Shown: in pieces, positions 27,166 to 57,204 of the stretch | Position numbering within the stretch: the stretch's first letter is position 1 | Layout of the letters: each line of letters opens with the position of its first letter | Source of the DNA: Ruminococcus sp. | Lineage (GTDB): Bacteria; Bacillota; Clostridia; Oscillospirales; Acutalibacteraceae | Assembly: GCA_022779485.1 (NCBI GenBank) | Contig: JALFTC010000013.1 | Span: 34,240 to 98,239, forward strand | Length of the DNA stretch: 64,000 nucleotides | Direction of reading: 5' to 3' | Position numbers and translations under genes: made by a program | Notes under the pieces: model-generated | Seen by the model: the letters and a program-made list of their open reading frames with translations, nothing else | Database searches by the model: none | Told to the model about the DNA's origin: nothing

Positions 27166-29169
27166 TTGGATACAGAAAGATATAGACGCAGGGGAATTCT
27201 TGTCCTGATAATCGCCCTGGTATTTTTTGCAGTTTTTGTTGTCAGGCTGTTCTTTTGGCAGGTTGTAGAGGGTGACAAGTACAAGGATATTGCATTAAAC
27301 AGCACAACCTTTTCACTTTCCTCCAACAGTACAAGGGGTGAGATTCTGACTTCTGACGGAAAGCCCCTTGCCACAAACAAAACTATTTACAACATTACCT
27401 TTAAAAAGAATTATGTAAAAGAAGAAAGTCTTAACGGCACCATACAAAAGGTGCTGAAAATTATGAAAATCCGCAACGAAAAGTGGGTGGATATGCTTCC
27501 CATAAAATACAGTAACGGCGGATATTCCTTTACAAATGACGATACAACACAGGACTCTCTTACATTTTTGCAGGGCGAAAGTATGCTTGACACCGGTGTT
27601 TATACTATGCCACAGCAGTATATGGAGGACCTTATAAAAAGGTATGAATGTGAAAATATTAAGGACAAAAATGAGCAAAGGGATGTAATTTCCGTCCGCT
27701 TTAATATGGAAATGCAAAACTTTAGCTCTGTAAACGACTACACCTTTGCCGAGGATGTCAGCAACGATATGATGCAGATTATCTGTGAAAATAATCAAAA
27801 GTTTGACGGTGTTGAAATCACCACAACAGTTGAAAGGCAGTACCTGAACGGTACACTTGCACCTCACATTGTGGGAACAGTGGGACAAATCAACGCCGAG
27901 GAATACGAGGACAAAAAGGACAAGGGTTACGGCTACAACGACCTTATCGGTAAGTTCGGCATTGAGAGAGTTTTTGAAAGTCAGCTTAGGGGCGAAGCCG
28001 GAAAGGCTTATATTGAAAGGAACAACAACGGCTCTGTTGTCCGCACAGTTGAGGCACAGGACGCAAAGCCGGGTAATTCCGTTTGGCTCACCATTGACAG
28101 CGAACTTCAAAAAATTGCTGATGATTCACTAAAATATAATGTTGACACCTGCCACAGCGAGGAGGCAAAGGACTGTGTAGCCGGTGCTGTTGTTATGCTT
28201 GATGTAAAGGACTTTTCCGTACTGGCGGCTGCTACCTACCCAAGCTATGATTTGTCAAAATACAACAACTACAAGTACTATTCAAAGCTTGCAAATGACG
28301 AAACAAGTCCCCTTTATTCCAGGGCATTCAGCGGTGCTTTTGCACCCGGCTCTGTGTTCAAGCCCTGTGTTGCACTTGCCGGTCTTGAGGAGGGCAAAAT
28401 CACAGAGAACAGCACTATTGTTTGTACCCAAAACTACGACTACTACCCAACGGATATTGTAAGGTGTATGGGATATCACAACGGAATTAGTCTTAACACA
28501 GCACTTGCAGTTTCCTGTAACTATTACTTTGCCGAGGTGGGCAGAAAGCTGGGAATTAACACCATTTACAGCTATGCCGAAAAGTTCGGTTTGGGACTTC
28601 CCACAGGTGTTGAGATTGACGAAAGCACAGGTATCCTTGCCGGTCGTGACAGTACCCATTGGACAGCCGGTAACACCGTTCAGGCGGCAATAGGTCAAAG
28701 TGACAATGCCTTTACACCTGCACAGCTTGCCACATATGTGGCAACAATAGCCAACGACGGCACAAGGCTTAAAACTCACCTTGTGGATAAAGTCACCACC
28801 TATGACAGAGAAAAAACCGTTGAAAAAACAGAGAGTGAAGTGGAGTCCACACTTAAGGTTGACAAGAAAAATCTTAAGGCAGTTCAAGAGGGTATGTGGA
28901 GCGTCTGCAACGAAGAGGACGGCACAGCCTACGGTATCTTCGGAAATTACGGTGTTGAGGTTGCCGCAAAAACAGGTACAGCGGAAAACAGCGGAACAGA
29001 CCACACAGTGTTTATGTGCTATGCCCCCTATGACAAGCCTGAGGTTGCAGTTGCTGTGGTAATTGAACACGGTGCTTTGAAGAAGTATTCCTGTGATGTT
29101 GCAAAAGCACTTTTGGACAAATACTTTTTTGATAAGGACTATGAACCGCAGAGTAATATGCTTTCTTAG
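27166..29169 (+). CDS. mrdA: Class B penicillin-binding protein 2 (elongasome transpeptidase; TTG start)
   Basis: RGEILTSDG; SxxK (GSVFK), SxN (SCN), KTG; follows mreBCD. Confidence 0.88.
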   Translation: MDTERYRRRGILVLIIALVFFAVFVVRLFFWQVVEGDKYKDIALNSTTFSLSSNSTRGEILTSDGKPLATNKTIYNITFKKNYVKEESLNGTIQKVLKIMKIRNEKWVDMLPIKYSNGGYSFTNDDTTQDSLTFLQGESMLDTGVYTMPQQYMEDLIKRYECENIKDKNEQRDVISVRFNMEMQNFSSVNDYTFAEDVSNDMMQIICENNQKFDGVEITTTVERQYLNGTLAPHIVGTVGQINAEEYEDKKDKGYGYNDLIGKFGIERVFESQLRGEAGKAYIERNNNGSVVRTVEAQDAKPGNSVWLTIDSELQKIADDSLKYNVDTCHSEEAKDCVAGAVVMLDVKDFSVLAAATYPSYDLSKYNNYKYYSKLANDETSPLYSRAFSGAFAPGSVFKPCVALAGLEEGKITENSTIVCTQNYDYYPTDIVRCMGYHNGISLNTALAVSCNYYFAEVGRKLGINTIYSYAEKFGLGLPTGVEIDESTGILAGRDSTHWTAGNTVQAAIGQSDNAFTPAQLATYVATIANDGTRLKTHLVDKVTTYDREKTVEKTESEVESTLKVDKKNLKAVQEGMWSVCNEEDGTAYGIFGNYGVEVAAKTGTAENSGTDHTVFMCYAPYDKPEVAVAVVIEHGALKKYSCDVAKALLDKYFFDKDYEPQSNMLS

Positions 29170-29480
29170 TTACAGTCAGCCTCCATCAGAGGAGGGAGGG
29201 GGACCGCTTGCGGTGGAAGGAGGGAAAAATTTTCCTCTTTTGCTCGTTTTGTCTTTAGAGGATAGTATGGTTTATTGTTCTGACTCATACTTTTCAATCT
29301 AAAGACAAAGCAAGATATATTGACTACTTTTTCGCTCCCTCAGTCACGCAAGGCGTGACAGCTCCCTCATCCGATTGAGCCTTTGTTTAGTCCTTAATTT
29401 CATCTAACCTATTAGTATCGGTTTAGGCACTACTGTTTTCCTTTCAGATTCATCGGTCACTTCGTTTCCTCGGAATGACA
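29168..29480 (+). repeat. REP/BIME-like mosaic element, copy A
   Basis: AGTTACAGTCAGCCTCC...GGGGACCGCTTGCGGTGGAAGGAGGG...CTCCCTCAGTCACGCAAGGCGTGACAGCTCCCTC...GGTCACTTCGTTTCCTCGGAATGACA; colinear with copies B, C and D. Confidence 0.85.
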
Positions 29481-29527
29481 ATATGGTTATGATACTTTTT
29501 CACGATTCGCTATAACTTTATAACTAC

Positions 29528-29558
29528 AACAACCTCCCTGATTTGGGAGGTTGTTTTA
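29528..29558 (+). terminator. Terminator of the mre operon
   Basis: AACAACCTCCC/GGGAGGTTGTT followed by TTTT. Confidence 0.7.
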
Positions 29559-29757
29559 CTCTGGTTATCCCTTTTGAAATAAATAATTTACACAAATTGT
29601 TTATTGATAAAAATCATACTTCTTGATAGAATGTATAATGTTAATTACATATCTGTTATTGTTCTTATAAGGAATTATTTATGCAAAAAAATAGCATACA
29701 ATGTTATGAGAAGTAGAATATTAAAATGGGATAGTATGAAGATTAAGGAGTCTTAAT

Positions 29758-32661
29758 ATGAGATTAGGATTGGATATAGGTTCAACAACAATTAAATGTG
29801 TTGTTTTGGATGAAAATAATAAGCTGTTATACAGTACATACGAAAGACATTACAGCCAAATCACTACAAAAATCGGAGAAATCCTAAATAAGGTAAGAAA
29901 AGAAATTCCAAATGTGGAAAAATCCCTTGTTGCCCTTTCAGGCTCTGCCGGAATGGGTGTTGCAGAGGACTGCGGTATTTCCTTTGTTCAGGAGGTATAT
30001 GCAACCCGTGTAGCCACAAATACATTTATCCCCGGTACTGATGTTGTCATTGAGCTGGGTGGCGAGGACGCAAAAATCCTCTTCCTTTCCGGCGGTATGG
30101 AGGTACGAATGAACGGAACCTGTGCAGGCGGTACAGGTGCATTTATTGACCAGATGGCAACTCTCCTTAATGTTCCCTTGGAGGAGATGAACGACCTTGC
30201 AAAGGGATACGAAAAGACATATACAATCGCATCAAGGTGCGGTGTTTTTGCAAAGACAGACATTCAGCCACTCCTTAACCAGGGTGCAAGAAAGGCTGAT
30301 ATTGCCCAAAGTATCTTTAGAGCAGTTGTAAACCAGACTGTTGCAGGACTGGCACAGGGCAGAGAAATTGAGGGTAATGTTGTGTACCTTGGCGGTCCTC
30401 TCACATTTATGGAGGAGCTGAGAAAGGCTTTTGACGAGGAGCTTAACACAAAGGGTACCTGTCCCGAAAATTCTCTTTACTATGTTGCCTGCGGTGCAGC
30501 CCTGTGTGCCGACAGCACTATTGACTTTGACAGCGTTATTGACAAGGTGAGCAATTACAGAGGTACCGGCAACTTTGCTTTTAACCCTCCCCTCTTTAAG
30601 AATGAAAAGGAGTATGAGGCATTTAAAAACCGTCACGCAAAGGCTACCGTAAAGGAAGTTCCCCTAAAGGACTATGACGGACTTTGCTACATCGGTATGG
30701 ATGCAGGAAGTACAACAGTTAAGGCTGTTGTTATGGGAGAAAATGGAGAATTACTCCACTCAAAATACCTTTCAAACAGTGGTAACCCTGTTCCCATTAT
30801 CAAGGATTTTTTACAGGAGCTTTACACAATAAAGCCCGATATTAAAATAAAGGCGTCAGCGGTGACAGGCTACGGTGAGGACATCATTAAAAATGCCTTT
30901 TGCGTTGACTACGGTATTGTTGAAACCGTTGCCCACTTCACCGCCGCAAAGAGCTTTATGCCTGATGTAGAATTTGTTATCGACATCGGCGGTCAGGACA
31001 TCAAGTGCTTTAAGGTGCACAACGGCGCTATTGACAATATTTTCCTTAACGAGGCTTGTTCATCAGGTTGCGGTTCATTTTTGCAGACCTTTGCCAATGC
31101 CCTTGGTTACTCAATTCAGGACTTTGCATCCCTTGGCATATTCGGCAAGCACCCTGTTGACCTTGGCTCAAGGTGCACCGTATTTATGAATTCCTCTGTT
31201 AAGCAGGCTCAAAAGGACGGCGCGACAATAGAGGATATTTCCAGCGGGCTGTCACTTTCTGTTGTTAAAAACGCACTTTACAAGGTAATCAGAGCGTCAG
31301 GTCCTGACGAGCTTGGCAAGAAAATTGTTGTACAGGGCGGAACATTCCTGAATGATGCAGTGCTTAGAGCCTTTGAGCAGGAAATGGGTGTAAATGTTGT
31401 TCGCCCCACAATTTCAGGACTTATGGGTGCATACGGTGCGGCTTTGTATGCACAAAGTAAATCACAGAATAGTAGTGAACTTAGCACACTTTTAGGTAGC
31501 GAGAAGCTGGAAAACTTTGTACACAAAATCAGCGTAGTTAACTGCGGACTTTGTAACAATAACTGCCGTCTTACTGTAAACACCTTTGCAGACGGCAGGA
31601 AGTTCATTGCAGGCAACAGGTGCGAAAGACCAATCACTAAAAAAGCACCTGACGAAAGTATGAACATATACGAATACAAGCTAAAGCTTTTGGAGGAATA
31701 TAAGCCTATTGAGGGAAGTCGAGGAAAAATCGGTATTCCTATGGGACTAAATATGTACGAGCTGTTGCCTTTCTGGCACAGGTTCTTCACAGAGCTTGGC
31801 TTTGAGGTTGTAAAGAGTCCATTCTCAACTCGAAAGCTGTATCAAAAGGGTCAGCAGACTATCCCAAGCGACACAGTTTGTTTCCCTGCAAAGCTTATGC
31901 ACGGTCATGTTAAGGCACTTATTGATGAGGGTGTGGATACTATTTTCTACCCTTGCTTGTCATACAATCTTGACGAAAAGCTGGGAGATAACCACTACAA
32001 CTGCCCTGTTGTTGCCTATTATCCCGAGGTAATTTACAACAATATGAAGGAGGTTCACAACATCACCTTCATTAAGGACTACTTTGGTATTCACCGCAAA
32101 AAGGACTTTGCCAAAAAGGCATATGAGGCTTTGTCAAAGTATTTCCCTGATTTAACAGCAAAAGAGGTTAAAAACGCAACAAAACTTGCATATGAGGAAT
32201 ATGACCGTTACTTTGAAAGGGTGAGAGCTCGTGGTGACGAAATAATTGCTCAGGCTGAAAAAGAGGGCAAGGAAATCATTGTGCTTTCAGGCCGTCCATA
32301 CCATATAGACCCTGAAATTAACCACGGTATCAGCAAGATGATAGGCTCCTTTGGTGTTGCAATAATCTCCGAGGACTGCGTTTCCAATAAGGTAGAAAAG
32401 TTCAAGGTTGGAGTGCTTAACCAGTGGACATACCACAGCCGTCTGTATGCCGCCGCTCGGTATGTCAGCACAAGGGATGATATGAACCTTGTTCAGCTTG
32501 TTTCCTTTGGCTGTGGCGTTGACGCTATCACTACCGATGAAGTAAGGGACATTCTTGAAAAGAACGGAAAAATTTACACACAGATAAAGATAGATGAAAT
32601 CACCAACTTGGGTGCAGTAAAGATTCGTATTCGTTCTTTACTTGCAGCCATAGGAAGATAA
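29758..32661 (+). CDS. Double BadF/BadG/BcrA/BcrD-type (2-hydroxyacyl-CoA dehydratase activator) ATPase fused to a DUF2229-like dehydratase domain
   Basis: Two ASKHA modules (GLDIGSTT...CAGGTG...CGVF; GMDAGSTT...CSSGCG...CTVF), then a PSDTVCFPAK, CPVV, SFGCGVD module. Confidence 0.85.
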   Translation: MRLGLDIGSTTIKCVVLDENNKLLYSTYERHYSQITTKIGEILNKVRKEIPNVEKSLVALSGSAGMGVAEDCGISFVQEVYATRVATNTFIPGTDVVIELGGEDAKILFLSGGMEVRMNGTCAGGTGAFIDQMATLLNVPLEEMNDLAKGYEKTYTIASRCGVFAKTDIQPLLNQGARKADIAQSIFRAVVNQTVAGLAQGREIEGNVVYLGGPLTFMEELRKAFDEELNTKGTCPENSLYYVACGAALCADSTIDFDSVIDKVSNYRGTGNFAFNPPLFKNEKEYEAFKNRHAKATVKEVPLKDYDGLCYIGMDAGSTTVKAVVMGENGELLHSKYLSNSGNPVPIIKDFLQELYTIKPDIKIKASAVTGYGEDIIKNAFCVDYGIVETVAHFTAAKSFMPDVEFVIDIGGQDIKCFKVHNGAIDNIFLNEACSSGCGSFLQTFANALGYSIQDFASLGIFGKHPVDLGSRCTVFMNSSVKQAQKDGATIEDISSGLSLSVVKNALYKVIRASGPDELGKKIVVQGGTFLNDAVLRAFEQEMGVNVVRPTISGLMGAYGAALYAQSKSQNSSELSTLLGSEKLENFVHKISVVNCGLCNNNCRLTVNTFADGRKFIAGNRCERPITKKAPDESMNIYEYKLKLLEEYKPIEGSRGKIGIPMGLNMYELLPFWHRFFTELGFEVVKSPFSTRKLYQKGQQTIPSDTVCFPAKLMHGHVKALIDEGVDTIFYPCLSYNLDEKLGDNHYNCPVVAYYPEVIYNNMKEVHNITFIKDYFGIHRKKDFAKKAYEALSKYFPDLTAKEVKNATKLAYEEYDRYFERVRARGDEIIAQAEKEGKEIIVLSGRPYHIDPEINHGISKMIGSFGVAIISEDCVSNKVEKFKVGVLNQWTYHSRLYAAARYVSTRDDMNLVQLVSFGCGVDAITTDEVRDILEKNGKIYTQIKIDEITNLGAVKIRIRSLLAAIGR

Positions 32662-32707
32662 AAGTAATTTGTTTAGATAAAGGATTAATTGTTGGGAGGT
32701 TTTGCTT

Positions 32708-34033
32708 ATGGCAAAGCTTGTATATGATAAAGACGGCCGTCTTATGTACACAAAGGAAATGAATGACGAGGGGTACAAAATTCTTGTGCCTATGATGATG
32801 CCTGTTCATTTTGGTATTCTTATGGATGCCTTTCGTCACGAGGGCTACAATGTTGAACTCCTTGACACAAACGGCCCGGAAATTGCACAGACAGGACTAA
32901 AGTATGTACATAACGACACCTGTTACCCCGCACTGCTTGTTATCGGTCAGCTTATAAACGCCCTTGAAAGCGGAAAGTACGACCTTAACAAAACAGCCCT
33001 TATGATTACACAGACAGGTGGCGGTTGCCGTGCCTCAAACTACATTCACCTTTTGAGAAAGGGGCTTAAAAAGGCAGGGCTGGAGCAAATTCCTGTTATT
33101 TCCCTGAATCTTTCGGGACTTGAAAAGAATCCCGGTTTTAAGATAACTCTACCCCTAATACGCAGGGTTATTGCAGGTCTTGTTTACGGCGATGTGCTGA
33201 TGACAGTGCGTAACCAGACAAAGCCCTACGAGGTGAACAAGGGCGAAAGTGACGCACTTGTGGAGAAGTGGCAGGATAAGCTTTCTAAGGACTTTAATGA
33301 GGGCAAAAGCTACCGTTTTAAGGAGATGGAAAGCATCCTTGACAGCATTTGCGGTGACTTTGCGAAGATTGAAAAAACAGGAGAGAAAAAGGTCAGAGTT
33401 GGCGTTGTGGGGGAAATTTATGTTAAATATGCCCGACTTGGCAACAACGACTTGGAGCAGTTCCTTTACGACCAGGGCTGTGAGGTATGTTTGCCCGGTG
33501 TTATGGGCTTTGCCGCCTTTAAAATTGACAACCGAATTGAGGACATCAAGCTTTACGGCGGAAGTCGTGCAAAGAAAAAGGTTTGCGAAATTATGCTTGA
33601 ATATGTTTCAAAGACAGAGGATATGATGATAGCCGCAACAACAAAGCACGGTTTTCAGCCACCTTCAAAGTATGCCCACACCAAGAGCCTTGTTGACGGT
33701 GTAATAGGCTTTGGCTCAAAGATGGGCGAGGGTTGGCTACTCACTGCAGAAATGCTTGAGCTTGCTGAAACAGGCTTTGAAAATATTGTCTGCACTCAAC
33801 CCTTTGGCTGTCTGCCAAACCACATCAATGGCAAGGGTATGATTAGAAGAATTAAAGAAATCAACCCAAAGGCAAATATTGTAGCCATTGACTACGACCC
33901 CGGCGCACCCAGGGTTAATCAGGAAAACAGAATCAAGCTGATGCTTGCCGTAGCCAAGGAAGAGCTTGACAAGCGTATTGTTGTGAAGAAAAAGGGTAGC
34001 AAGAAAGACAATAAAGAAAAGGCAACAGTTTAA
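32708..34033 (+). CDS. 2-hydroxyacyl-CoA dehydratase-like subunit, partner of the upstream gene
   Basis: VHNDTCYPAL, QTGGGCRASNY, GEGW, QPFGCLPNHI, IDYDPG. Confidence 0.82.
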   Translation: MAKLVYDKDGRLMYTKEMNDEGYKILVPMMMPVHFGILMDAFRHEGYNVELLDTNGPEIAQTGLKYVHNDTCYPALLVIGQLINALESGKYDLNKTALMITQTGGGCRASNYIHLLRKGLKKAGLEQIPVISLNLSGLEKNPGFKITLPLIRRVIAGLVYGDVLMTVRNQTKPYEVNKGESDALVEKWQDKLSKDFNEGKSYRFKEMESILDSICGDFAKIEKTGEKKVRVGVVGEIYVKYARLGNNDLEQFLYDQGCEVCLPGVMGFAAFKIDNRIEDIKLYGGSRAKKKVCEIMLEYVSKTEDMMIAATTKHGFQPPSKYAHTKSLVDGVIGFGSKMGEGWLLTAEMLELAETGFENIVCTQPFGCLPNHINGKGMIRRIKEINPKANIVAIDYDPGAPRVNQENRIKLMLAVAKEELDKRIVVKKKGSKKDNKEKATV

Positions 34034-34051
34034 CTGATGTGCTATGATATT

Positions 34052-34090
34052 AAAATACCCCAAAGCGTTTCTGCTTTGGGGATTTCTTTT
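34052..34090. terminator. Bidirectional terminator
   Basis: CCCCAAAGC/GCTTTGGGG between convergent genes. Confidence 0.7.
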
Positions 34091-34112
34091 TGGAAAATAT
34101 TATTATTTAATT

Positions 34113-34562
34113 TTAGTCCTTTTCCTTAAAGGCGAAGAACCTTTGACCTATGTAGTTGAATGCTACAAACAGGCACATACCTACAAGCATTGCAATGTTT
34201 GTCTGTATAGTTTCGCTTTGTCCCGACAAAATCCACAGAGCCACAGGCTTTGCAATTCCGTAAGCAAGTAGGTAGCAAACAGCAATGTTCAGGGAAAATT
34301 TCAGAATAGGCTTAATGCCCTTTTCTTTATTTTTAAATGTAAAATGCTTGTTTAAAATATAGCTTACAATACTTCCTATTATGTATCCAAGGGCAGATGA
34401 AGTCCAATATCCTCCGCTTGCAATAACCCCGTCAAGGTCTTTTATTGGGGTGAAGTTGTAGAACAGGAACATCAGTCCGTTGCCTACAATGGTGTTGAGG
34501 ATACCAACCAAAATAAATTTCCAAAATTTTATGTCAAAAAACTGTTTAAGAAAATCCTTCAT
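34113..34562 (-). CDS. gtrA: GtrA family Und-P-sugar flippase
   Basis: KFILVGILNT, SYILNKHFTF, FNYIGQRFFAF; 4 TM helices. Confidence 0.88.
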   Translation of the reverse strand: MKDFLKQFFDIKFWKFILVGILNTIVGNGLMFLFYNFTPIKDLDGVIASGGYWTSSALGYIIGSIVSYILNKHFTFKNKEKGIKPILKFSLNIAVCYLLAYGIAKPVALWILSGQSETIQTNIAMLVGMCLFVAFNYIGQRFFAFKEKD

Positions 34563-35509: not shown

Positions 35510-35708
35510 AACAAATCTCCTGTTTTATAAAATCCTAATAGATTTATTATAACAAATGGAAAATAAAATGTCTATAAAATTATCTGTTTACAAAAAATTT
35601 ATAAAATTGGGTTTACGATACAACAATAAAATGTTAAAATAAGAAATAGTACTTTAGGAAATACGAATAGATTAATCATTATTTCCTTAAATTAACGGAG
35701 GACGCATT

Positions 35709-39147: not shown

Positions 39148-39498
39148 AGTTACTGACAGCCTCCACCAGAGTTGGGGGGGAATCACTTGCCCTACATCCA
39201 GCCTCCCTCAGACGAGGGAGGGGGACCGCTTGCGGTGGAAGGAGGGAAAAATTTTCCTCTTTTGCTCATTTTGTCTTTAGAGGATAGTGTGGTTATGTGT
39301 TCTTATTCATACTTTGGCATCTAAAGACATACCAAGATACATTGACTACTTTTTCGCTCCCTCAGTCACGCAAGGCGTGACAGCTCCCTCATCCGAGGGA
39401 GCCTTTGTTAAGTTCATAATTTCATATAACCTTTTAGTGCCGAATTAGGCACTACTGCTATCCTTTCAGATTCTTCGGTCACTTCGTTTCCTCGGAAT
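39148..39498 (+). repeat. REP/BIME-like mosaic element, copy B (left end duplicated)
   Basis: Colinear with copy A; two AGCCTCC starts. Confidence 0.85.
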
Positions 39499-46056: not shown

Positions 46057-46461
46057 TGTCATTCAGAGGGAGCGAAGCGACTGAAGAATCTTAACGGACA
46101 GCAGTTTTGCCTAAATCGACACTAACAGGTTAGATGAAAGTATGGACTAAACAAAGCCTCCATCGGATGAGGGAGGTGGCACGGCTTTAGCCGTGACGGA
46201 GGGAGTGAAAAAGTAGTCAATGTATCTTTGTATGTCTTTAGATAACAAGGTTTAAGTCAAAACAATAAACCAAACTATCAACAAAGGACAAAATGAGCAA
46301 AAGAGGAAAGTTTTTCCCTCCTTCCCCCGCAAGCGGTCCCCCTTTTTCTGGCGAAAACGGCAAACCCTTTGTCACTTCGTGACATTTCCCTTAGCAGGGA
46401 ATACTCCTTTGATGGAGGCTATCTGTAACTCAAATTGCCTACTACCTGTCATTCCGAGCCA
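46057..46461 (-). repeat. REP/BIME-like mosaic element, copy C (inverted; carries an extra REP-like hairpin module)
   Basis: Reverse complement is colinear with A/B/D; extra CCCTGCTAAGGGAAATGTCACGAAGTGACAAAGGG block. Confidence 0.85.
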
Positions 46462-47184: not shown

Positions 47185-47288
47185 TTTATCACCTCAAAAT
47201 TTAAAAGTTAAGGGTTATAGGGGGGGAGTGTTTGTTACATATAGCCTAATTGAAGTGGTCAATTAAGGAAAAATTCACACACTATAAT

Positions 47289-47474
47289 CCGAGCTACAAC
47301 CCTGTCATTCCGAGCCACAACCCTGTCATTCCGAGCTTGTCGAGGAATCCCCTGCCTCCACAAATTATTTTGTTAGAGAAATCACACTTTCCTATAACCT
47401 GATAGTGTGGATTTATGCACTACTGCTATCCTTTTAGATTCCTCGGTCACTTCGTTTCCTCGGAATGACAGGGT
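47289..47474. repeat. REPIN-like inverted doublet with a 21-bp tandem expansion (copy E)
   Basis: CCGAGCYACAACCCTGTCATT x2 (47289-47330); ACCCTGTCATTCCGAG (47320-35) pairs perfectly with CTCGGAATGACAGGGT (47459-74); the right ~75 bp match the right end of copies A-D. Confidence 0.85.
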
Positions 47475-47485
47475 GGGTATCTTTT

Positions 47486-48427: not shown

Positions 48428-48490
48428 TACTATTTGTCCTTTCCATTATAACATATTTTACTAAATTTTTAAAGGTCTTGATTATTTTCA

Positions 48491-48519: not shown

Positions 48520-48540
48520 AAATCCACGGGAGATGGAACA

Positions 48541-49809: not shown

Positions 49810-49842
49810 TATATATAAGAAAGAGAAAAGGAGAGAGAAGAA

Positions 49843-50565
49843 ATGATTAAGAATATATTTTTCGACCTTGACGGAACTATGCTCCCCATGGATATGGAAA
49901 AATTTATGAAACTGTACTTTACTTCCTTGGCAGAGGCTGTTTGCCCCTATGTGGGTATTTCTCCAAAGACATTGCAAAAGTCTGTTTTGGCAGGCCTTGA
50001 GGAGATGTACAAGAATGACGGCTCAATAACAAACAAGATGTGCTTTTGGAACAAGGTTGCTACCATTGTGGGGCCGGATATTATCAATCAAATCCCTGTT
50101 TTCAACGGATATTACGAAAACGAGTTTATACTCACCAAGGAGGCAACCTCGGAAAGTCCATATCCGCAAAAGATTGTGGAGGTGCTGAAAAACAAGGGAT
50201 ACACCTTGGTTATGGCGACTAACCCATTTTTTCCAAGGGTTGCAACTGAGAGGAGAGTAAAGTGGGCAGGTCTTAACAAGGATGATTTTAAGGTAATCAC
50301 CACATATGAAACATCAAAGTACACAAAGCCTAACCCAAATTATTTTACCGAAACCTGTAAAATGGCTGATTGTCTGCCGGAGGAAACACTTATGGTGGGC
50401 AATGATGTTGACGAGGATATGAGCAGTAGTAAAATCGGTATGGACACATACCTTGTAACGGACGACCTTATCAACAGGCACAACGCAGACATTTCCTCAT
50501 ACAAAAAGGGAAGCTTAAAGGACTTTTACGAATTTTGCTGTGAGCTTCCAAGCCTAAAGGATTAG
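49843..50565 (+). CDS. HAD family hydrolase
   Basis: FDLDGTM, ATNP, KPNPNYF, MVGNDVDED. Confidence 0.8.
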   Translation: MIKNIFFDLDGTMLPMDMEKFMKLYFTSLAEAVCPYVGISPKTLQKSVLAGLEEMYKNDGSITNKMCFWNKVATIVGPDIINQIPVFNGYYENEFILTKEATSESPYPQKIVEVLKNKGYTLVMATNPFFPRVATERRVKWAGLNKDDFKVITTYETSKYTKPNPNYFTETCKMADCLPEETLMVGNDVDEDMSSSKIGMDTYLVTDDLINRHNADISSYKKGSLKDFYEFCCELPSLKD

Positions 50566-50629
50566 AGAAACACACAAGAAAAATTTTGCTTGTGAAAACT
50601 ATGACGGATAAGAAAATGGAGAACATAAA

Positions 50630-51433
50630 ATGAAATACGATTTAATTGCCCTTGATATGGACGGCACTCTGTGTAATGACGAGAAGGAAATTCCACAGGA
50701 AAATATTGACGCTATTATAGAAATGCAAAAAATGGGAAAGACTGTGGCTGTTGTAACAGGCAGACCGGAAAGCGGTATTTTGCCCTTTATTCAGGAATTA
50801 AGGCTAAAGGACTTTGGAGGTTATGTGGTTTCCTACAACGGCGGAAGAATTTACAGTGTAAAGAAAGACAAAATTCTCTACAACTGTCCTTTTCCAAAGG
50901 AGTATTTGAAGGAAATTTTTGATATAGTTGGTGACAGCAGTATCACAGTAACATCACCTCTTGATAAAAAGATTGTGGCAGGTAACAGCCTTAACGATTA
51001 CTCCTACACAGAGGCAAACATTGTGGGACTTCCCTTTGAATTTTTTGACGACTTTGTAAATCTTGATGTGGAAATGAACAAGCTACTCCTTGTTGGCGAC
51101 CCTGTTGTTATCGAAAAATATCTCCCTGTTTTGCAAAAGACATTTGAGCCAAGGCTACATGTGTTTTTAAGTGAGCCTTTCTTCCTTGAAATCACCCCTG
51201 CAAATGTAAACAAAGGTGAGGGACTACACTCACTTGCCAAAATAACAGGTATTCCTGTGTCAAAAATGGTTGCAATGGGTGACAGCTACAACGATATTGA
51301 AATGCTTAGAGAGGCTGGACTTGGCGTTGCAATGAAGAATTGCAAGGAAGGTGTGGAAAAGTATGCCGACATCACCACAGTTACAAATAATGAATGTGGT
51401 GTAGCAAAAATCATAAGGGAATATATTATTTAG
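50630..51433 (+). CDS. Cof-type HAD-IIB hydrolase
   Basis: LDMDGTL, VTGRP, NKGEGL, GDSYNDIEML, GVAM. Confidence 0.88.
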   Translation: MKYDLIALDMDGTLCNDEKEIPQENIDAIIEMQKMGKTVAVVTGRPESGILPFIQELRLKDFGGYVVSYNGGRIYSVKKDKILYNCPFPKEYLKEIFDIVGDSSITVTSPLDKKIVAGNSLNDYSYTEANIVGLPFEFFDDFVNLDVEMNKLLLVGDPVVIEKYLPVLQKTFEPRLHVFLSEPFFLEITPANVNKGEGLHSLAKITGIPVSKMVAMGDSYNDIEMLREAGLGVAMKNCKEGVEKYADITTVTNNECGVAKIIREYII

Positions 51434-51508
51434 CCATTTTTTATTCATACATTATTCACAAGTTGGGGAATATAGCCAAAAACAGAGTCAAAAAATTGGC
51501 ACTGCAAA

Positions 51509-51548
51509 CAGATTAATTTTCTTTTAAAGAAAATTAATCTGTTTTTTT
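51509..51548 (+). terminator. Long AT-rich hairpin with a T-tract
   Basis: CAGATTAATTTTCTTT / AAAGAAAATTAATCTG followed by T7. Confidence 0.6.
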
Positions 51549-51584
51549 CATTATATAATCTAAATGTATAAGATTGTATTTATA

Positions 51585-51736
51585 CTAATACCTAATAAAA
51601 AGCAGACAATCTTTGCGGTCTAATTTCCAGAGTACTGCGTTGTTGTCCTTGCAAGGCGTCAGCCTTGCGGCGTCCTCCGCCTTGTCCTCTGAAAATTATC
51701 CTCGCAAATATTAGTCTACTTTCTATCAGATATTAG
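51585..51736. mobile_element. 152-bp MITE-like element with imperfect ~25-bp TIRs, flanked by TA on both sides
   Basis: Left CTAATACCTAATAAAAAGCAGAC vs reverse complement of right end CTAATATCTGATAGAAAGTAGAC; internal palindrome GCAAGGCGTCAGCCTTGC; TA at 51583-84 and 51737-38. Confidence 0.65.
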
Positions 51737-51758
51737 TAATAAAAAGGAGAATGTAGCT

Positions 51759-53990
51759 ATGAAAAAACTTACTGCAATCCTTATGGTTCTTGTTTTGGCA
51801 TTGTCAGTTGCCGGTGTTTCGGTTTCTGCCGCACAGACAAGCAATCAATCAAGCGGTGCTACGGGCATAACAGTCCACTATTACACAGAAAAGGGTACTC
51901 CAAGTGTTTACTACTGGAACTCTCTTCCAAGTAATATTTCAACAGACTATCCCGGTCCTAAGATGACAAGCGAGGGTAACAACTACTACAAGTACACCTT
52001 TAGCAGTGTTACAAAGATTAACCTACAGTTTGTTGACAGTGACGGAACACAGAGTGCAGAGCTCACAAGAAACACAGACAACGGTAACAATGAATTTTGG
52101 TACAAAAACAGCCGTTGGTTCAACAAGGTTCCAACTGATGCAGATGTAGAGAGAACAGACCTTCGTGAGGACAGTATCTACTTCATAATCACATCAAGAT
52201 TTTATGACGGTGACACAAGCAACAATGTTCACTGCTGGGATGACGGACAGGCAAACAACCCCGACTCCGACCCTGCTTGGCGTGGCGACTTTAAGGGATT
52301 AATTCAAAAGCTTGACTACATCAAGGCACTTGGTTTCTCCGCTATTTGGATTACACCTGTTGTTGAAAATGCATCAGGCTATGACTACCATGGCTACCAC
52401 GCATTTGACTTCAGCAAGGTTGACCCAAGATACGAGTCAAGCGACACTACATATCAGGACCTTATTGACGCAGCTCACGAAAAGGGTCTGAAAATCGTAC
52501 AGGATGTTGTTTGGAACCACACAGGTAACTTTGGTGAGGCTTTCCTTGCACCAATGTTTACAAAGGATTACAGCAAACTTGACTCTGTTGACTGTATGAA
52601 GACAATTCCCGGATCAGTATTTGAAAAAACTGCTCCCGGCTATGACAGTATGCTGCCGGGCTACCAGTATCAGGCAAGACTTGCTGTTATGAAAGAGGAT
52701 GCAAACGACACCAACCATTACTATCACCACGACAAGTCCATGAGTTACGGCTCATCTGCTGAGCAGACAGGACAGATGGCAGGTGACTGCGTTGATATTA
52801 ATACAGAAAATCCGATAGTTGCAAAATATATTACAGATTGCTACAAACAGTATGTTGATATGGGTGTTGACGCTTTCCGTATGGATACAGAAAAGCACAT
52901 CAACCGTTGGACACTTAACAGCGCTTATTTCCCTGTATTTACAGCATACAAGAACTTCCACATCTTTGGTGAGGTGTGTGCAAGATACCACGGCGCATAC
53001 AACGAGGGCGGTTCCTCCGACTCCTGCTTCTTCTACACCTGGAAAGAAACAGACAGCGCTTGGCAGAACAACTGGAGCAACTCCGGTTGGGAATCAAACT
53101 ATACCAACGCTATAAAGCACTTCGGGGCTTACCAGAACAGAGCTTTCCCAGAAAAAAGCACAAACGCAAGTCTTGACGGTATTAATTACCACACACCTGA
53201 CTACAGCAAGGCAAACGGAACAAGTACAATCGACTTCCCAATGCACTGGGCATTTAGGAATGCAGGTGAGGCTTACAGAGCAGCCTGTAGTGAGGATTCC
53301 CTGTACAATGACGCAACATGGGCAGTAACCTATGTTGACTCCCACGACTACGGTCCTGACGGACAGGAAAAGACCCGTTATCAGGGCGGTGCGCAGGCTT
53401 GGGCAGAGAATATGAACCTTATGTTCACATTCCGTGGTATTCCTTGTATTTACTACGGTTCTGAAATCGAGTTTAAGAAGGATGTTCCAATTGATGTTGG
53501 CCCTAACGCACCACTCGAAAAGACAGGTCGTGCATACTTTGGTACAAACCTTGAGGGTACTGTTTCTGCAAGTGATTACGGCAAGTATACAGCAAGCGGT
53601 ACAGTAGCATCCACACTTAATGCTCCCCTTTCCAAGCACCTTTCAAAGCTTAACCAAATCAGACGAGCAATCCCTGCACTTCAAAAGGGTCAGTACACAA
53701 ATTCTTCCAACTATGTTAGCGGAGATATGGCATATATCAGAAGATACACAAGTGCTGACGAGGGCGATTCACTTGCTTGTGTAGCGCTAAGCGGTAGTGC
53801 AACATTCAAGAATATTCCTAACGGTACATACATTGACGCTGTAACAGGCGACCAAAAGACTGTAACAAACGGTACACTTTCAGTCAGCGGTATCGGACAG
53901 GGCAATATGAGAGTATATGTATGCTGTGCATCAGGCTTTAACGGAATTTCCGGAGCAGTTGGCGAAACAGATCTTACATACCTCAAATAA
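51759..53990 (+). CDS. Secreted GH13 alpha-amylase with an N-terminal starch-binding module
   Basis: Signal peptide; VYYWN..DYPG CBM-like module; GDFKGL, DAFRMDT, GEV, VDSHD. Confidence 0.85.
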   Translation: MKKLTAILMVLVLALSVAGVSVSAAQTSNQSSGATGITVHYYTEKGTPSVYYWNSLPSNISTDYPGPKMTSEGNNYYKYTFSSVTKINLQFVDSDGTQSAELTRNTDNGNNEFWYKNSRWFNKVPTDADVERTDLREDSIYFIITSRFYDGDTSNNVHCWDDGQANNPDSDPAWRGDFKGLIQKLDYIKALGFSAIWITPVVENASGYDYHGYHAFDFSKVDPRYESSDTTYQDLIDAAHEKGLKIVQDVVWNHTGNFGEAFLAPMFTKDYSKLDSVDCMKTIPGSVFEKTAPGYDSMLPGYQYQARLAVMKEDANDTNHYYHHDKSMSYGSSAEQTGQMAGDCVDINTENPIVAKYITDCYKQYVDMGVDAFRMDTEKHINRWTLNSAYFPVFTAYKNFHIFGEVCARYHGAYNEGGSSDSCFFYTWKETDSAWQNNWSNSGWESNYTNAIKHFGAYQNRAFPEKSTNASLDGINYHTPDYSKANGTSTIDFPMHWAFRNAGEAYRAACSEDSLYNDATWAVTYVDSHDYGPDGQEKTRYQGGAQAWAENMNLMFTFRGIPCIYYGSEIEFKKDVPIDVGPNAPLEKTGRAYFGTNLEGTVSASDYGKYTASGTVASTLNAPLSKHLSKLNQIRRAIPALQKGQYTNSSNYVSGDMAYIRRYTSADEGDSLACVALSGSATFKNIPNGTYIDAVTGDQKTVTNGTLSVSGIGQGNMRVYVCCASGFNGISGAVGETDLTYLK

Positions 53991-54051
53991 TTGTTGAATT
54001 GGAACAAATACAGTAACTATGTAATTTTCATTTCTCAAAAATATTTCTCAA

Positions 54052-54092
54052 AAGAAAACCGAGTAATCCATTTTGGATTACTCGGTTCTTTA
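54052..54092. terminator. Bidirectional terminator
   Basis: AACCGAGTAATCCA/TGGATTACTCGGTT between the convergent amylase gene and valS. Confidence 0.8.
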
Positions 54093-54116
54093 TGTTGCAT
54101 CTTATTTTATTGCATT

Positions 54117-56744
54117 TTATTTTAGGGATTCAATGGCTGTGTTGATTAGGGCGATTTTTTCCCTTTCTTTTTCAGCCTGTGACTTGATTTTTTCAATAAC
54201 CTTTTCAGGGGCTTTTGACATAAAGCCGGGGTTGTTCAGCTTGCCCTCGTCCTGTGCAAGCATTTTTTCAACCTGTTTTAGCTCTTTGTTAAGTCTTGCA
54301 AGCTCTGCCTCTTTGTCAACAAGCTCTTCCATAGGAATATAAATCTTTGCATCCCCGGTGACAACTGTAACTGCACCCTCAATTTCAAATGCGTCACCAA
54401 TTTCTACACCGCTTGCAGACGCAAGTTTTTCAAAGAATTTAACTCCCTGACTAAATGTATCAGGTGTTGCAGTGGCTATAAACAGCTTTGCTTTCTTTGA
54501 CGGAGGAACATTCATCTCGTTTCTTTGGGTACGAATTGCTGTGATTGCCTCCATTACCTTCATCATATCCTGTGCTTCCGTTGAGAAGTTAAGGCTTTCG
54601 TCATACTGAGGATATTCCTCAAGCATAATTGTCTTGCCCTCAGTTTCGTGTGGAATTGTCTGCCAAATTTCCTCTGTGATAAAGGGCATAAATGGGTGGA
54701 GTAGCTTTAGCATTTTGTCAAGGACAAAGATAAGTACCTGACGGGCATTTTGTGCTGTTTCGCCCTCGCTTTGAAGTCTTGCCTTGCAAAGCTCAATGTA
54801 CCAGTCGCAGTAGCTGTTCCAAATAAAGTCGTAAATCTTTGAAAGTGCTATACCAAGTTCAAACTTTTCAAGGTTTTCGTTAACCTCTTTTGCCACATTG
54901 TTAAGTGTGTGCAAAATCCACTTGTCCTCTGTTTCCAGCTTTTCAGGAAGTTTATTTTCAACATCATAGTCGTCAATGTTCATATGAACAAAACGGCTGG
55001 CGTTCCACAGCTTGTTGGCAAAGTTCCTGCAAGCCTCAACTCTCTTTTCGGAATATCTCATATCATTTCCCGGTGAGTTACCTGTGGCGAGGAACATTCT
55101 AAGTGCGTCTGCACCGTACTGGTCAATAACAAGCAGCGGGTCAATGCCGTTGCCAAGGGATTTACTCATTTTAACACCGTTTTCGTCACGAACAATACCG
55201 TGAATGAATACTGTGTCAAAGGGCTGACTGTCCATCTGTTCAACAGAGCTGAAAATCATCCTTGCAACCCAGAAGAATATAATGTCGTAGCCTGTTACAA
55301 GTGTGTTTGTAGGGAAGTAGTAGTCAAGCTCAGGAGTTTTCTCAGGCCAGCCGAGAGTTGAGAAAGGCCATAGTGCCGAGCTGAACCAAGTGTCAAGTGT
55401 GTCCTCATCCTGATGCAGATGTGTACATCCGCACTTAGGACATTTTTCCGGTGCAGTTTTTGCAACAACAATTTCTCCGCACTCATCACAGTAGTAGGCA
55501 GGAATTCTGTGTCCCCACCAAAGCTGACGGGAAATACACCAGTCACGAATGTTCTCCATCCAGTGGTAGTAAATCTTATCAAAACGCTCGGGAACAAACT
55601 TTGTCTTACCGCTTTTTACACATTCAATGGCAGGACCTGCAAGCTCGCTCATTTTTACAAACCACTGCATAGAAACCCTTGGTTCAACTGTGCTGTGGCA
55701 TCTGTAACAGGTGCCAACATTGTGGTCGTGCTTTTCTACTCTTACAAGGTAACCGCCCTCGTCCAAATCCTTGACGATGGCCTCTCTTGCCTCGTATCTG
55801 TCCATACCCGCATATTTTGGGTAATCCTCAACGATTTTTGCGTCATCTGTCATAACATTGATAACAGGCAAATTGTGTCTTAAACCAACCTGAAAGTCGT
55901 TAGGGTCGTGAGCAGGAGTGATTTTAACAACACCTGTACCAAATTCAATGTCAACATAGCTGTCGGCAACAATGGGAATTTCTCTGCCCACAAGTGGAAG
56001 TGTGAGGGTTTTGCCAACAAGGTGCTTGTATCTGTCGTCATCAGGGTTAACAGCAACGGCTGTGTCGCCCAAAAGTGTTTCAGGTCTTGTAGTGGCAAGT
56101 TCAAGGTATCCGCTACCGTCTGTGAGAGGATAGCGAAGATGCCAAAAGTGACCTGCCTGCTCCTCAAACTCAACCTCTGCGTCAGAGATAGAAGTACAGC
56201 AGTGAGGACACCAGTTGATGATTCTTTCCCCTCGGTAGATTAAGCCCTTTTCGTAAAGGCGGATGAAAACCTCTTTAACAGCCTCGGAGCAACCCTCGTC
56301 CATAGTAAAGCGTTCTCTTTCCCAGTCACAGGAGGAACCCATCTTTTTAAGCTGACTTACAATTCTTCCGCCGTATTCCTTTTTCCAGTCCCAGGCTCTT
56401 TCAAGGAACTTTTCTCTGCCGATATCCTCTTTGGAGATGCCTTCCTTTCTCATAGCCTCAACAATTTTTGCCTCGGTTGCAATACTTGCGTGGTCTGTGC
56501 CGGGTAGCCAAAGTGCGGAATAACCCTCCATTCTTCTCCAGCGGATAAGAATATCCTGCAAGGTGTTGTCAAGGGCATGTCCCATATGGAGCTGACCTGT
56601 AATGTTTGGCGGTGGCATTACAATAGTGTAAGGCTTTTTGTCCTTGTCCACCTCCGCGTGAAAGTAGTTGCCCTCCAGCCAAAAGTCATATATTTTGTCT
56701 TCAACCTCTTTAGGGTTGTAGGCTTTAGCCATTTCTTTAGCCAT
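54117..56744 (-). CDS. valS: Valyl-tRNA synthetase
   Basis: [35 protein letters not shown]-terminal coiled coil. Confidence 0.97.
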
Positions 56745-56798
56745 AGCGTATTCTCCTTCATAGCTTAATATGTTAATAAGACATTAGTATTACATTCT

Positions 56799-56827
56799 AT
56801 TATCTCATTAATGAAAGAAATTGTCAA
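56799..56827 (-). promoter_or_regulatory. Putative valS promoter
   Basis: TTGACA-17 bp-GATAAT with a TG extension, about 50 nt before the ATG. Confidence 0.5.
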
Positions 56828-56869
56828 TTAAAACAGGGCAAAAATATGCACTGATTTTGTGGTGAGTTT

Positions 56870-57204
56870 GGAATGACAGAAGTAGACAGTTTTAGTTATA
56901 GAAAGCCTCCACCAGATGGGGGAGGGGGACCGCTTGCGGTGGAAGGAGGGAAAAAGTGTTCTTTTTATCTCTTTTTGTCTTTAGAAGATAGTGCGGTTAT
57001 ATATTCTGACTTAAACTTTATCATCTAAAGACATACCAAGATATATTGACTACTTTTTCACTCCCTCAGTCGACTTTGGCGACAGCTCCCTCATCCGAGG
57101 GAGCCTTTGTTAATTCCTTAATTTCATCTAACCTATTAGTGTCGTTCTATGCACGACAGCTTTCCTTTCAGATTCCTCGGTCACTTCGTTCCCTTGGAAT
57201 GACA
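56870..57204 (+). repeat. REP/BIME-like mosaic element, copy D
   Basis: Colinear with A/B/C; GGAATGACA at both ends. Confidence 0.85.

Follow-up and report, generated by a model that had tools for sequence, protein, structure and literature searches.

Hairpin-rich repeats in a Ruminococcus genome are patchworks of separate REP-like families in intergenic DNA

The four repeat copies (A–D) in the window, i.e., the whole stretch of 64,000 nucleotides analyzed here, are patchworks composed of small hairpin-forming repeats from at least two separate families, which occur in intergenic positions across the genome. The genome is a Ruminococcus metagenome-assembled genome (MAG; 2.02-Mb assembly, 94.8% complete), and nhmmer profile searches of the whole assembly placed the first family, module X, at 54 loci and the second, module Y, at 35. 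The earlier note on this DNA had named a scarcity of copies outside the window as an argument against its proposal, and these counts remove that argument. Its description of the repeats as REP/BIME-like is borne out as well, since they are modular and hairpin-rich, contain several hairpin classes, lie in intergenic DNA mostly after genes, and are numerous genome-wide.

All four copies were found at the positions and on the strands first reported, and can be aligned over ~310 columns with pairwise identities of 84–90% (BLAST E-values 1e-83 to 1e-116). In BLASTN comparisons within the genome, copy A shared 89.9% identity with copy B (E 4e-116), 83.6% with copy C (E 1.5e-83), and 84.0% with copy D (E 2.6e-93). 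The landmarks AGCCTCC..., GGGGACCGCTTGCGGTGG, the inner inverted repeat TGTCTTTAGA/TCTAAAGACA and the end GGAATGACA were all recovered, and the extra hairpins in copy C and the doubled left end in copy B are real. The arm order proposed earlier needs correction for the copies in the window, where the second arm is not the inverse of the first hairpin but a homologous arm whose inner hairpin differs (GTCACGCAAGGCGTGAC vs. ACCGCTTGCGGT). The count of four composite copies was correct but overlooked a related stand-alone Y-type dimer at ~47238–47477. The features of the window are as follows.

29168..29177, + strand: copy A, left leader (TTAGTTACAGTC); the TAG at 29167-29169 serves as PBP2 stop codon
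29178..29383, + strand: copy A, module X, a 206-bp near-palindrome of two inverted two-hairpin arms, the centre with TGTCTTTAGA/TCTAAAGACA (nhmmer profile 1-206, E 2.5e-59 on +, 3.8e-51 on -)
29396..29480, + strand: copy A, module Y core with the terminal sequence ...CCTCGGAATGACA, forming the right half of a REP dimer with TGTC tags (nhmmer E 2.7e-22)
29481..29530, + strand: short further module (ATATGGTTATGATACTTTTTCAC...) between the Y of copy A and the true terminator at 29531-29557; common to relatives G029 and G028, absent in G030
39148..39199, + strand: copy B, doubled partial left end of X plus filler
39200..39405, + strand: copy B, module X (nhmmer E 2.5e-59)
39418..39498, + strand: copy B, module Y core, final bases diverged (GGAATCCCA; nhmmer E 1.5e-20)
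46057..46141, - strand: copy C, module Y core (nhmmer E 1.1e-21)
46154..46347, - strand: copy C, module X, left terminal hairpin interrupted (nhmmer profile positions 16-206)
46348..46461, - strand: copy C, extra modules: dRS3-like hairpin (ATTCCCTGCTAAGGGAAAT), GTCACGAAGTGAC hairpin, GGGTTTGCCGTTTTCGCCAG block, and leader, which begins CTCGGAATGACAGG immediately after the stop codon of the Sir2 gene
47238..47477, + strand: stand-alone full Y dimer (Yf): two to three tandem 21-bp units (CCACAACCC-TGTCATTCCGAG), TGTC hairpin at 47324, spacer, inverted TGTC hairpin ending at 47470
56870..56903, + strand: copy D, leader (GGAATGACAGAAGTAGACAGTTTTAGTTATAGAA) made of a Y right-end tail and the outer part of the X palindrome
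56904..57107, + strand: copy D, module X (nhmmer E 5.6e-57)
57120..57204, + strand: copy D, module Y core (nhmmer E 1.7e-21)

The module X profile aligns with both strands along its entire length. Each of the two arms flanking its conserved centre combines a terminal hairpin, CCTCCCTC-NNNN-GAGGGAGG, with an inner one (GTC...GAC), the latter in four to five discrete versions that are all fully compensated. Pairing extends to 86% of cells across the arm hairpins, as against 38–64% when the partners are slid, and both sides change in 7 of 15 pairs. In the congeners G003 and G001, the arms flank unrelated AT-rich centres and also stand solo. Because its arms recur in congeners around unrelated centres, X is a REPIN-like doublet. 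The hairpin CTCCCTC-N4-GAGGGAG is present in at least five copies in 16 of 151 genomes of the genus, while a metagenome scan for X gave 0 matches. The X arms are untagged, and no GTAG-type 5' tag was found on either the X arms or the Y hairpins, the tag of the latter being TGTC. The ends of X resemble local terminators (GGGAGCC followed by TTTGTTT), and terminator-like sites, two of them consisting of a hairpin plus a T-run, are present in the X(+) sense only. Half-copies of X were considered as ends of a larger element and rejected, the fragments lying in ordinary spacers. Spurious ORFs of ~85–95 aa are created across X.

Module Y is an 85-nt core with no consensus fold on either strand, and constitutes the right half of Yf, a ~155-bp dimer in which TGTC-tagged REP hairpins stand in inverted orientation on either side of a conserved spacer of ~90 nt. 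Yf ends in TGT...ACA, and its ends carry one to three tandem 21-bp repeats of the tagged unit. A strict hairpin scan of the genome gave 26 copies (24 TGTC-tagged and two CGTC-tagged; none in the reversed-sequence control), 25 of them intergenic. A ATTCCGAG-type stem, set against CGAGGAAT and including a tandem G.A mismatch, occurs in 19 of the 26; the loop is 5 nt in 15 and 13 nt in nine, and the tail is CCC in 11 and CTG in another 11. A superfamily of REPs with an unpaired 5' tag (CGTC, TGTC, or CCTC), a stem of 8–9 bp with A-T pairs at the first two positions, a loop of 4–5 nt, and a 3-nt tail has been described previously (Di Nocera, De Gregorio & Rocco 2013, PMC3733652). Its members, which include dRS3 of Neisseria and RPE-4/-6 of Rickettsia, mostly form inverted dimers with a spacer of 20–100 bp located in co-directional or convergent spacers (PMC3733652). 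The 15 short-loop copies fit this definition best, while the partner hairpin of each Yf dimer has a 13-nt loop, beyond the published range. From these sequence features, Yf fits as a member of the superfamily, and the earlier characterization of the repeats as little described is thus only half true, the end hairpin of Y belonging to a group already in the literature. The same TGTC hairpin was found across phyla: an identical 24-mer hairpin is present on 105 metagenome contigs with 37–74% GC, and TGTC copies reach 132 in one congener (G084).

X and Y do not behave as one unit. Y directly follows X at only ~14 loci, and each is also found by itself or combined with other modules. The Y core is preceded either by the left arm of Yf (~15 loci) or by the end of X or of a further hairpin module, Z (~15 loci). 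In a tree of Y cores, X-linked and free copies are intermixed, while one X-linked clade of nine members suggests that some may have spread as a block. The claim that the unit moves or converts as a whole does not survive these observations, the two modules being separable and differing in copy number, partners, and distribution in the genus. X, Yf, and the smaller modules are found almost solely in spacers after genes, between stop codons and terminators. Y lies in co-directional or convergent spacers at 31 of its 35 loci and in divergent ones at three. The statement that all four copies lie at gene 3' ends needs qualification for copy D, which lies at the 3' end of an MBOAT gene but also precedes the valS start by 126 bp. 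X is found in both orientations, while the orientation of Y in co-directional spacers is biased 14:1. In convergent spacers, the orientation of Y relative to the local leading strand was not biased in this way (4:7), and a replication-strand bias there, considered as a sign of a single-strand mechanism, was discarded. All genes bracketed by elements in this genome are ordinary, none encoding a transposase. An integron attC origin was rejected, as its core sites are not matched and the adjacent genes have housekeeping functions.

The comparison with empty sites that the earlier note had called for showed that occupancy differs between related genomes. At sites A, C, and D, relatives have either no element or a different filling, the entire element of copy D being missing at its site in G026, G029, and G027. 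The stand-alone Yf site is empty in G026, G027, and G030 and filled in G029 and G028. Several sites are filled only in this genome and G029, and empty in G026 and three more distant species. Of 13 Yf sites, at least five are occupied in this genome and in G029 but empty in G026 and more distant relatives. Of 14 X sites in relatives, ~8–9 are empty in this genome. Flanks are 93–100% identical between species with gains between them. Across the junctions compared between species, no target-site duplication of constant length was found. Microhomology at X-composite junctions was 0, 0, 5, 2, 7, and 0 bp, and Yf junctions were mostly without duplication, apart from one ~9-bp and one imperfect 8–9-bp case read by eye. 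Over both sets of junctions, microhomology ranges from 0 to 9 bp and is inconsistent. The sequence beside the junctions has often been remodelled. None of the copies were identical or near-identical, the nearest neighbour being 88–96% identical. Movement of the modules is read from occupancy between species rather than seen directly, and some of the differences between filled and empty sites could be deletions instead of insertions.

In none of the genomes examined did a Y1, TnpB, or matching DDE transposase adjoin the elements. A PF01797 search found no Y1/HUH gene in the 94.8%-complete MAG or in five X-bearing relatives, while control genomes were matched. TnpB (PF07282) gave no match in any element-bearing genome, so the ωRNA/TnpB idea was rejected. 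An IS110/bridge-RNA system was likewise dismissed, as the lone IS110 gene is on a 2.1-kb contig with neither X nor Y. The ends of an IS481-like rve element on contig C27 are unrelated to X or Y, and a tiny match resembling a RAYT remnant on contig C9 proved to be an out-of-frame coincidence inside a TraG-like gene. A screen of multi-copy ORFs for transposases gave only ICE and prophage duplicates and the spurious ORFs across X. A parent IS with the same ends was not found in the MAG, relatives, phages, plasmids, or metagenome loci, among which short-read MAGs can miss IS copies; the mobilizing transposase may be absent from all six assemblies merely by the loss of multi-copy IS elements from MAGs. 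No carriage of the repeats by phages or plasmids was detected.

The four copies are probably local assemblies from a lineage-wide stock of non-coding, BIME/NIME-like hairpin modules that spread as non-autonomous DNA by means of an unlinked enzyme. Such an enzyme, acting in trans, would recognize the folded hairpin ends, and its substrate would most plausibly be single-stranded DNA, because no duplication is made. It would not be a linked RAYT and would either have been lost or be encoded elsewhere in the genome. Recombination or template switching at junction motifs that the modules share (..GGAGCC|TTTGTT.., CTCGGAATGACA) may then reshuffle them, and deletions may remove them. After insertion, they would be co-transcribed in 3' untranslated regions, where the hairpins and the two hairpin-plus-T-run sites in the X(+) sense could end or stabilize transcripts, which would explain the strong preference for one orientation between co-directional genes. 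We infer both the single-strand mechanism and the RNA-level effects. The one or two junctions with a ~9-bp duplication count against this explanation, and would fit a DDE enzyme. A more specific proposal, in which TGTC/CGTC REP dimers and X doublets are copied by a conserved, genetically unlinked non-Y1 enzyme that recognizes the folded hairpin, is put forward only tentatively, and we consider it unlikely.

Two alternatives assign the spread to a known class of transposase. X and Yf could be MITEs, derived by deletion from one or two DDE insertion sequences whose terminal inverted repeats they share, and moved in trans by transposases that were not assembled. Each is bounded by terminal inverted repeats and is non-coding, the TGT...ACA ends of Yf with their tandem 21-bp units recall the multiple transposase-binding sites of IS21/Tn7/Mu-type ends, and the two Yf duplications and those of 5–7 bp at composites would agree with it, as would an assembly that does break at repeats. 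However, most clean junctions lack a duplication and the lengths vary from 0 to 9 bp, the sole rve and IS110 genes present have unrelated ends, and no matching pair of ends encloses a transposase in this genome. Furthermore, none of 80 metagenome TGTC loci had a Y1-like ORF nearby in a screen restricted to the Y1 class, and the survey of CGTC REPs found no linked transposase (PMC3733652). We therefore regard a MITE origin as unlikely. The earlier note had inferred a RAYT-analogous system, i.e., arms that are REPs multiplied by a single-copy Y1 (HUH) RAYT, present or recently lost and leaving a decaying population. Consistent with this, X has a doublet architecture without target duplication, and RAYT-like genes are common in the genus, with a Y1 match in 86 of 151 genomes. 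Such matches are commoner in arm-rich genomes (14 of 16 vs. 72 of 135 others; Fisher p=0.014, uncorrected for phylogeny), and G003, richest in arm hairpins (51), has an internally deleted RAYT-like pseudogene. The distance of copies from their nearest neighbours (4–12%) is also that expected for decay after loss of a RAYT (10.1101/2021.07.10.451892). Against it stand the missing Y1 gene in this genome and in the five X-bearing relatives, the absence of a GTAG tag, and the 38 IS200/RAYT-like loci of the genus, arm-rich genomes included, none of which has X, Y, or an arm hairpin within ~1.4–2 kb. The RAYT-like genes of the genus, with lengths of 164–209 aa, adjoin argC and resemble domesticated Group-1-type genes, which have no clear link to REPs (PMC5581495). 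In addition, six of 12 TGTC-rich genomes are without any Y1 match, including G084, and gains map to the common branch of this genome and G029, neither of which has Y1. Multiplication by a RAYT is accordingly a doubtful explanation, and the analogy drawn earlier is not upheld.

The remaining alternatives dispense with transposition to a greater or lesser extent. A structured RNA family, either small RNA genes or cis-elements of 3' UTRs, kept for its RNA function and with mobility secondary or absent, could account for the 14:1 orientation of Y, which is not tied to the replication strand, for the position between stop codons and terminators, and for the compensated base pairs of the arm hairpins. 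This is highly improbable, as no Rfam family was matched at the gathering score (only chance matches to miRNA hairpins at E-values up to 10), the Y core has no consensus fold, X is palindromic and occurs in both orientations, and the variable occupancy beside the same housekeeping genes in sister species argues against a gene-specific role. More improbable still are elements that never moved, such as duplicated terminators or other old intergenic sequence that recombination or gene conversion alone spread and homogenized and that deletions removed. The variable junctions with remodelled flanks, the terminator-like ends of X, and the lack of near-identical copies would be expected from such a history, whereas the 54 and 35 dispersed copies beside unrelated genes and the same hairpin across phyla would not; the sites filled only here and in G029 would by pure loss need many parallel deletions.

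The results extend CGTC/TGTC-tagged REPs to gut Clostridia and add X as a lineage-specific family of two-hairpin doublets. The way in which CGTC-type REPs multiply in the absence of a dedicated transposase has been a question since at least 2013, and closely related species with many differing sites and no Y1 genes found offer a comparative handle for narrowing down the enzyme. In practical terms, the repeats break short-read assemblies of the clade, contribute stop codons, and are located within 3' UTRs of core genes. Many element copies are located at contig ends, where the repeats break the present assembly.

Among known systems, Yf shares with the CGTC/TGTC superfamily (PMC3733652) the TGTC tag, a stem of eight positions opening with A-T and T-A, a 5-nt loop, a C-rich 3-nt tail, inverted dimers with a spacer inside the published length range, and a location near stop codons in co-directional and convergent spacers without an associated transposase. 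It differs in its host, a member of Bacillota where the 2013 survey listed five other phyla, in the G.A mismatch of the stem and the long loop of the dimer partner, in the tandem repeats of the tagged unit at its ends, and in that the Y core is often joined to the unrelated doublet X, which replaces its own left arm. X resembles REPINs (Bertels & Rainey 2011, PMC3116915) in consisting of two inverted hairpin units that can fold into one long hairpin, and in forming a diverse, "quasispecies"-like intergenic population of tens of copies without target duplication. Unlike REPINs, its arms have two hairpins each and no GTAG tag, its spacer is long (~95 nt) and conserved, and no RAYT was found in its genome, nor was any RAYT examined in the genus flanked by arms. 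The BOX elements of Streptococcus pneumoniae (PMC3049150) are also modular non-coding repeats of a Firmicute (boxA-boxB(n)-boxC) that vary in module number and fold stably, and for which no mobilizing enzyme is known, but they share no sequence similarity and have the order A-B-C instead of inverted arms.

The BIMEs of Escherichia coli and the NIMEs of Neisseria are likewise mosaics located after genes, built in changing combinations from non-palindromic connectors and more than one class of hairpin. The hairpin of module Z, ATTCCC-N7-GGGAAT, resembles dRS3 of Neisseria, whereas the sequences here are unrelated to BIME motifs. Binding of IHF or gyrase and use as phage attachment sites are known for BIMEs and dRS3, and the proteins bound by defined motifs of BIMEs also include Pol I. 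Overall, the inference of a RAYT system is not supported, and the elements of this Ruminococcus genome are best compared with mosaic repeats of the BIME/NIME kind.

In the genome searched (2.02 Mb in 52 contigs, 39.6% GC, 94.8% complete; the window is C11:34240-98239), the four look-alike stretches described in the earlier note were recovered and can be aligned over ~310 columns, with 83.6-89.9% identity to copy A in BLASTN searches of the whole assembly. Window coordinates are as follows:

29168-29480 (+), copy A, the query
39148-39498 (+), copy B, 89.9% identity to copy A, E 4e-116
46057-46461 (-), copy C, 83.6% identity to copy A, E 1.5e-83
56870-57204 (+), copy D, 84.0% identity to copy A, E 2.6e-93

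The matches of copy A split into two blocks (query 1-221 and 228-313), and with iterated nhmmer profiles two modules were delimited, X (206 bp, 54 loci in the genome, 29 of them full length) and Y (an 85-nt core, 35 loci). Every full copy of X matches on both strands, and X is thus an imperfect palindrome over its whole length. Y follows X, by ~13 bp, at only ~14 loci; at the remaining loci X either has no module after it or precedes another one, Z (TTTTACTAAC + ATTTCCCTTAGCAAGGGAATA + CCTCATCCGAGGGAGCC), and 5' of the Y core we found an X or Z end at ~15 loci and a quite different left arm at ~15 others. The stretch had been taken to move or convert as one unit, which these counts contradict, as at least two independent families are involved. 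In a tree of Y cores the X-linked and other contexts are intermixed (16 label changes vs 22 with shuffled labels) and all nine copies of one clade are X-linked, showing that the blocks are sometimes copied jointly and that the composite cannot be taken as the elementary unit. Copy C also has extra hairpins, and copy B a duplicated left end; these had been pointed out in the note and are indeed further modules, with other occurrences in the genome. A third, unrelated MITE-like family of ~160 bp, with terminal repeats GGAAACACTGA(A/T)TAAATCA, provides the most frequent 16-mers of the genome (34-48 copies); one end occurs alone immediately to the right of copy D (window 57271-57287), and a full copy is found at C27:15906-16065.

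Each arm of X consists of a terminal hairpin, CCTCCCTC-AGAC-GAGGGAGG, an inner hairpin and the run GGAGGGAAAAA. The inner hairpin occurs in four or five discrete types, each with a fully complementary stem (ACCGC-TT-GCGGT, GTCACGC-AAG-GCGTGAC, GTCGCC-TTT-GGCGAC, GTCGGC-AGA-GCCGAC and GTCACGGC-TAAA-GCCGTGC), and any one type can occupy either arm. Among 48 distinct aligned arms, including those of two congeners, 86% of cells are paired in the hairpins, compared with 38-64% after a shift of the 3' partners by 1-3 columns, and both sides have changed in seven of 15 pairs. Between the arms lies a centre of ~95 nt bearing the inverted repeat TGTCTTTAGA/TCTAAAGACA. Two congeneric genomes without X proper, G003 and G001, carry the same arms around unrelated AT-rich centres of similar length, as well as solo arms, and the terminal hairpin CTCCCTC-N4-GAGGGAG is present in at least five copies in 16 of 151 sampled genus genomes (read backwards, the pattern gave zero in nearly all genomes, the main exception being G150). 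It is thus the arm that is conserved and selected, and X is built from two of them as a REPIN-like doublet. In arm alignment A4, two non-pairing positions per arm always change together, GAGGGAGC...TGAGGGAG vs GAGGGGGC...TGGGGGAG, probably reflecting subfamily linkage and not base pairing. X also creates spurious ORFs of ~85-95 aa that mimic a multi-copy protein family (C11:112913-113200, C16:30138-30407, C46:3098-3361 and C49:84-347).

The genes flanking copies A-D are ordinary core genes (PBP2, CoA-enzyme activase, YfhO, GNAT, PFOR, Sir2, ValRS and MBOAT). Copies A and C are placed between the stop codon and the real terminator and should thus belong to the 3' UTR; the TAG stop of the PBP2 gene is itself supplied by the element of copy A. 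A TPP riboswitch was located at window 63636-63741 (+), its score of 58 bits exceeding the Rfam gathering threshold. Few copies of either module occupy divergent spacers (Y 3/35, X 2/43), and between co-directional genes most run against the direction of transcription (Y 14/15, X 18/26). In convergent spacers the orientations were unbiased with respect to the local leading strand (4 vs 7), which ties the orientation bias to transcription rather than to replication. Hairpin-plus-T-run sites are found only in the X(+) sense (GAAGGAGGGAAAAATTTTCCTCTTTT then GCTCGTTTTG, and GCTCCCTCATCCGAGGGAGC then CTTTGTT), and selection against terminators within transcription units could account for the preferred orientation of the repeats.

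Outside the studied genome, an exact 27-mer of the element was matched in no more than five species-level genomes (four MAGs of Ruminococcus sp. and one of an Oscillospiraceae). Comparison with related genomes (G026-G030) showed that site A is empty in G030 and G027, holds a lone TGTC-type hairpin in G029 and, in G028, a Yf without X, Yf being the ~155-bp dimer whose right part is the Y core. Site C is nearly empty in G030, and at site D the element is absent in G026, G029 and G027, where the spacer also has a different terminator. Of 14 X copies in relatives with both flanks mapping to the studied genome, ~8-9 correspond to empty sites there, two to filled sites and three to sites with other modules. 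Among 13 stand-alone Yf loci of the studied genome, most are also filled in its closest relative, G029; at least five are without Yf in G026, whose flanks are 93-100% identical, and Yf is missing at the same sites in the more distant G027, G028 and G030. The most parsimonious reading of this distribution is several gains of Yf on the branch leading to the studied genome and G029. Occupancy differs between relatives, and the repeats are mobile or at least turning over, as had been proposed.

No constant duplication was seen at the insert junctions of X composites or Yf. The composite X inserts measure 205-404 bp (638 bp in one badly aligned pair) and vary in module content, with microhomology of 0, 0, 5, 2, 7 and 0 bp at six clean junctions; Yf inserts are 147-287 bp long and mostly lack duplications, the exceptions being one of ~9 bp and an imperfect one of 8-9 bp, both read by eye. 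Nearest neighbours within the genome are only 88-96% identical, and the copies are accordingly not young; many X copies are situated at contig ends, and the most similar ones may be hidden by short-read assembly. Orthologous spacers of sister species have different terminator hairpins (window 56745-57284 vs loci L062-L064; C16:106174-106230 vs L117), where whole terminators appear to have been swapped together with repeats.

The earlier note had proposed a clostridial system analogous to the REP elements that HUH RAYT transposases mobilise in Gammaproteobacteria. No match to the Y1/RAYT class (PF01797) was obtained in the studied genome or in the five relatives bearing X, and arms, X and Y were absent near all 38 Y1 loci examined in the genus, those of arm-rich genomes included, which leaves the analogy unsupported. 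Y1 matches occur in 86 of 151 genus genomes, as IS200-type genes and single-copy RAYT-like genes of ~155-210 aa with HUH and Tyr motifs, often adjoining argC (motifs intact at L098-L113 and L136-L141). They are commoner in arm-rich genomes (p=0.014, phylogeny not accounted for), and G003, with the most arm hairpins of the genus sample, has a RAYT-like pseudogene with an internal deletion (L077:1353-1777, -). This co-occurrence weakly keeps a historical role of RAYT alive. Six of 12 TGTC-rich genomes are without a Y1 match.

TnpB was not found in element-bearing genomes, an ORF screen of the genome gave no multi-copy transposase, and the genome held no pair of matching ends enclosing a gene; genes bracketed by elements were not unusual, and phage, plasmid and viral-contig collections contained zero copies. 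A single IS110 gene and a single IS481-like element were rejected, as their ends are unrelated to the repeats. The former is an IS110-family transposase gene standing alone on C1 (2122 bp), and the ~420 bp of non-coding sequence upstream could be a bridge RNA site. The latter (C27:16484-17693, encoding a 310-aa rve-domain protein) is flanked on both sides by a 22-23-bp direct repeat, ATTTTATCTTACATCTTACATAT, much longer than target duplications usually are.

The assignment to a REP/BIME-like kind with several hairpin classes was right. On neither strand does the Y core fold into a consensus structure by itself. The Yf dimer starts with the left hairpin TGTC-ATTCCGAG-CTTGT-CGAGGAAT-CCC, followed by a conserved ~90-nt spacer and an inverted hairpin ending CTCGGAATGACA, and its ends often carry 1-3 tandem 21-bp copies of CCACAACCC-TGTCATTCCGAG. 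A strict genome scan identified 26 tagged hairpins (tag TGTC in 24, CGTC in two; loop of 5 nt in 15 and 13 nt in nine), 25 of them intergenic, and zero in the reversed-sequence control. TGTCATTCCGAG reaches at least 10 copies in 12 of 151 genus genomes, with a maximum of 132 in one, and the TGTC-rich and arm-rich sets of these genomes overlap only in part. In addition, the 24-mer hairpin CATTCCGAGCTTGTCGAGGAATCC is identical in 105 environmental metagenome contigs of 37-74% GC, often with the inverted partner hairpin where the flank is long enough, and no Y1-like ORF is present at any of the 80 loci listed (L143-L222). That genomes so unlike each other share the hairpin without a single change suggests that it is recognised by a conserved factor or, alternatively, has spread horizontally.

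The defining features of the Yf hairpins match those of the CGTC/TGTC-tagged REPs, which have an 8-9-bp stem opening with A-T pairs, a 4-5-nt loop and a 3-nt tail, and form inverted dimers with 20-100 bp spacers sited in co-directional and convergent spacers (PMC3733652). These REPs are recorded from five phyla, Firmicutes not included, with 'association to TPase genes: -' (PMC3733652). One half of the composite (Y/Yf) is thus a member of a described superfamily, whose CGTC-1 family has been equated with Neisseria dRS3 (PMC3733652).
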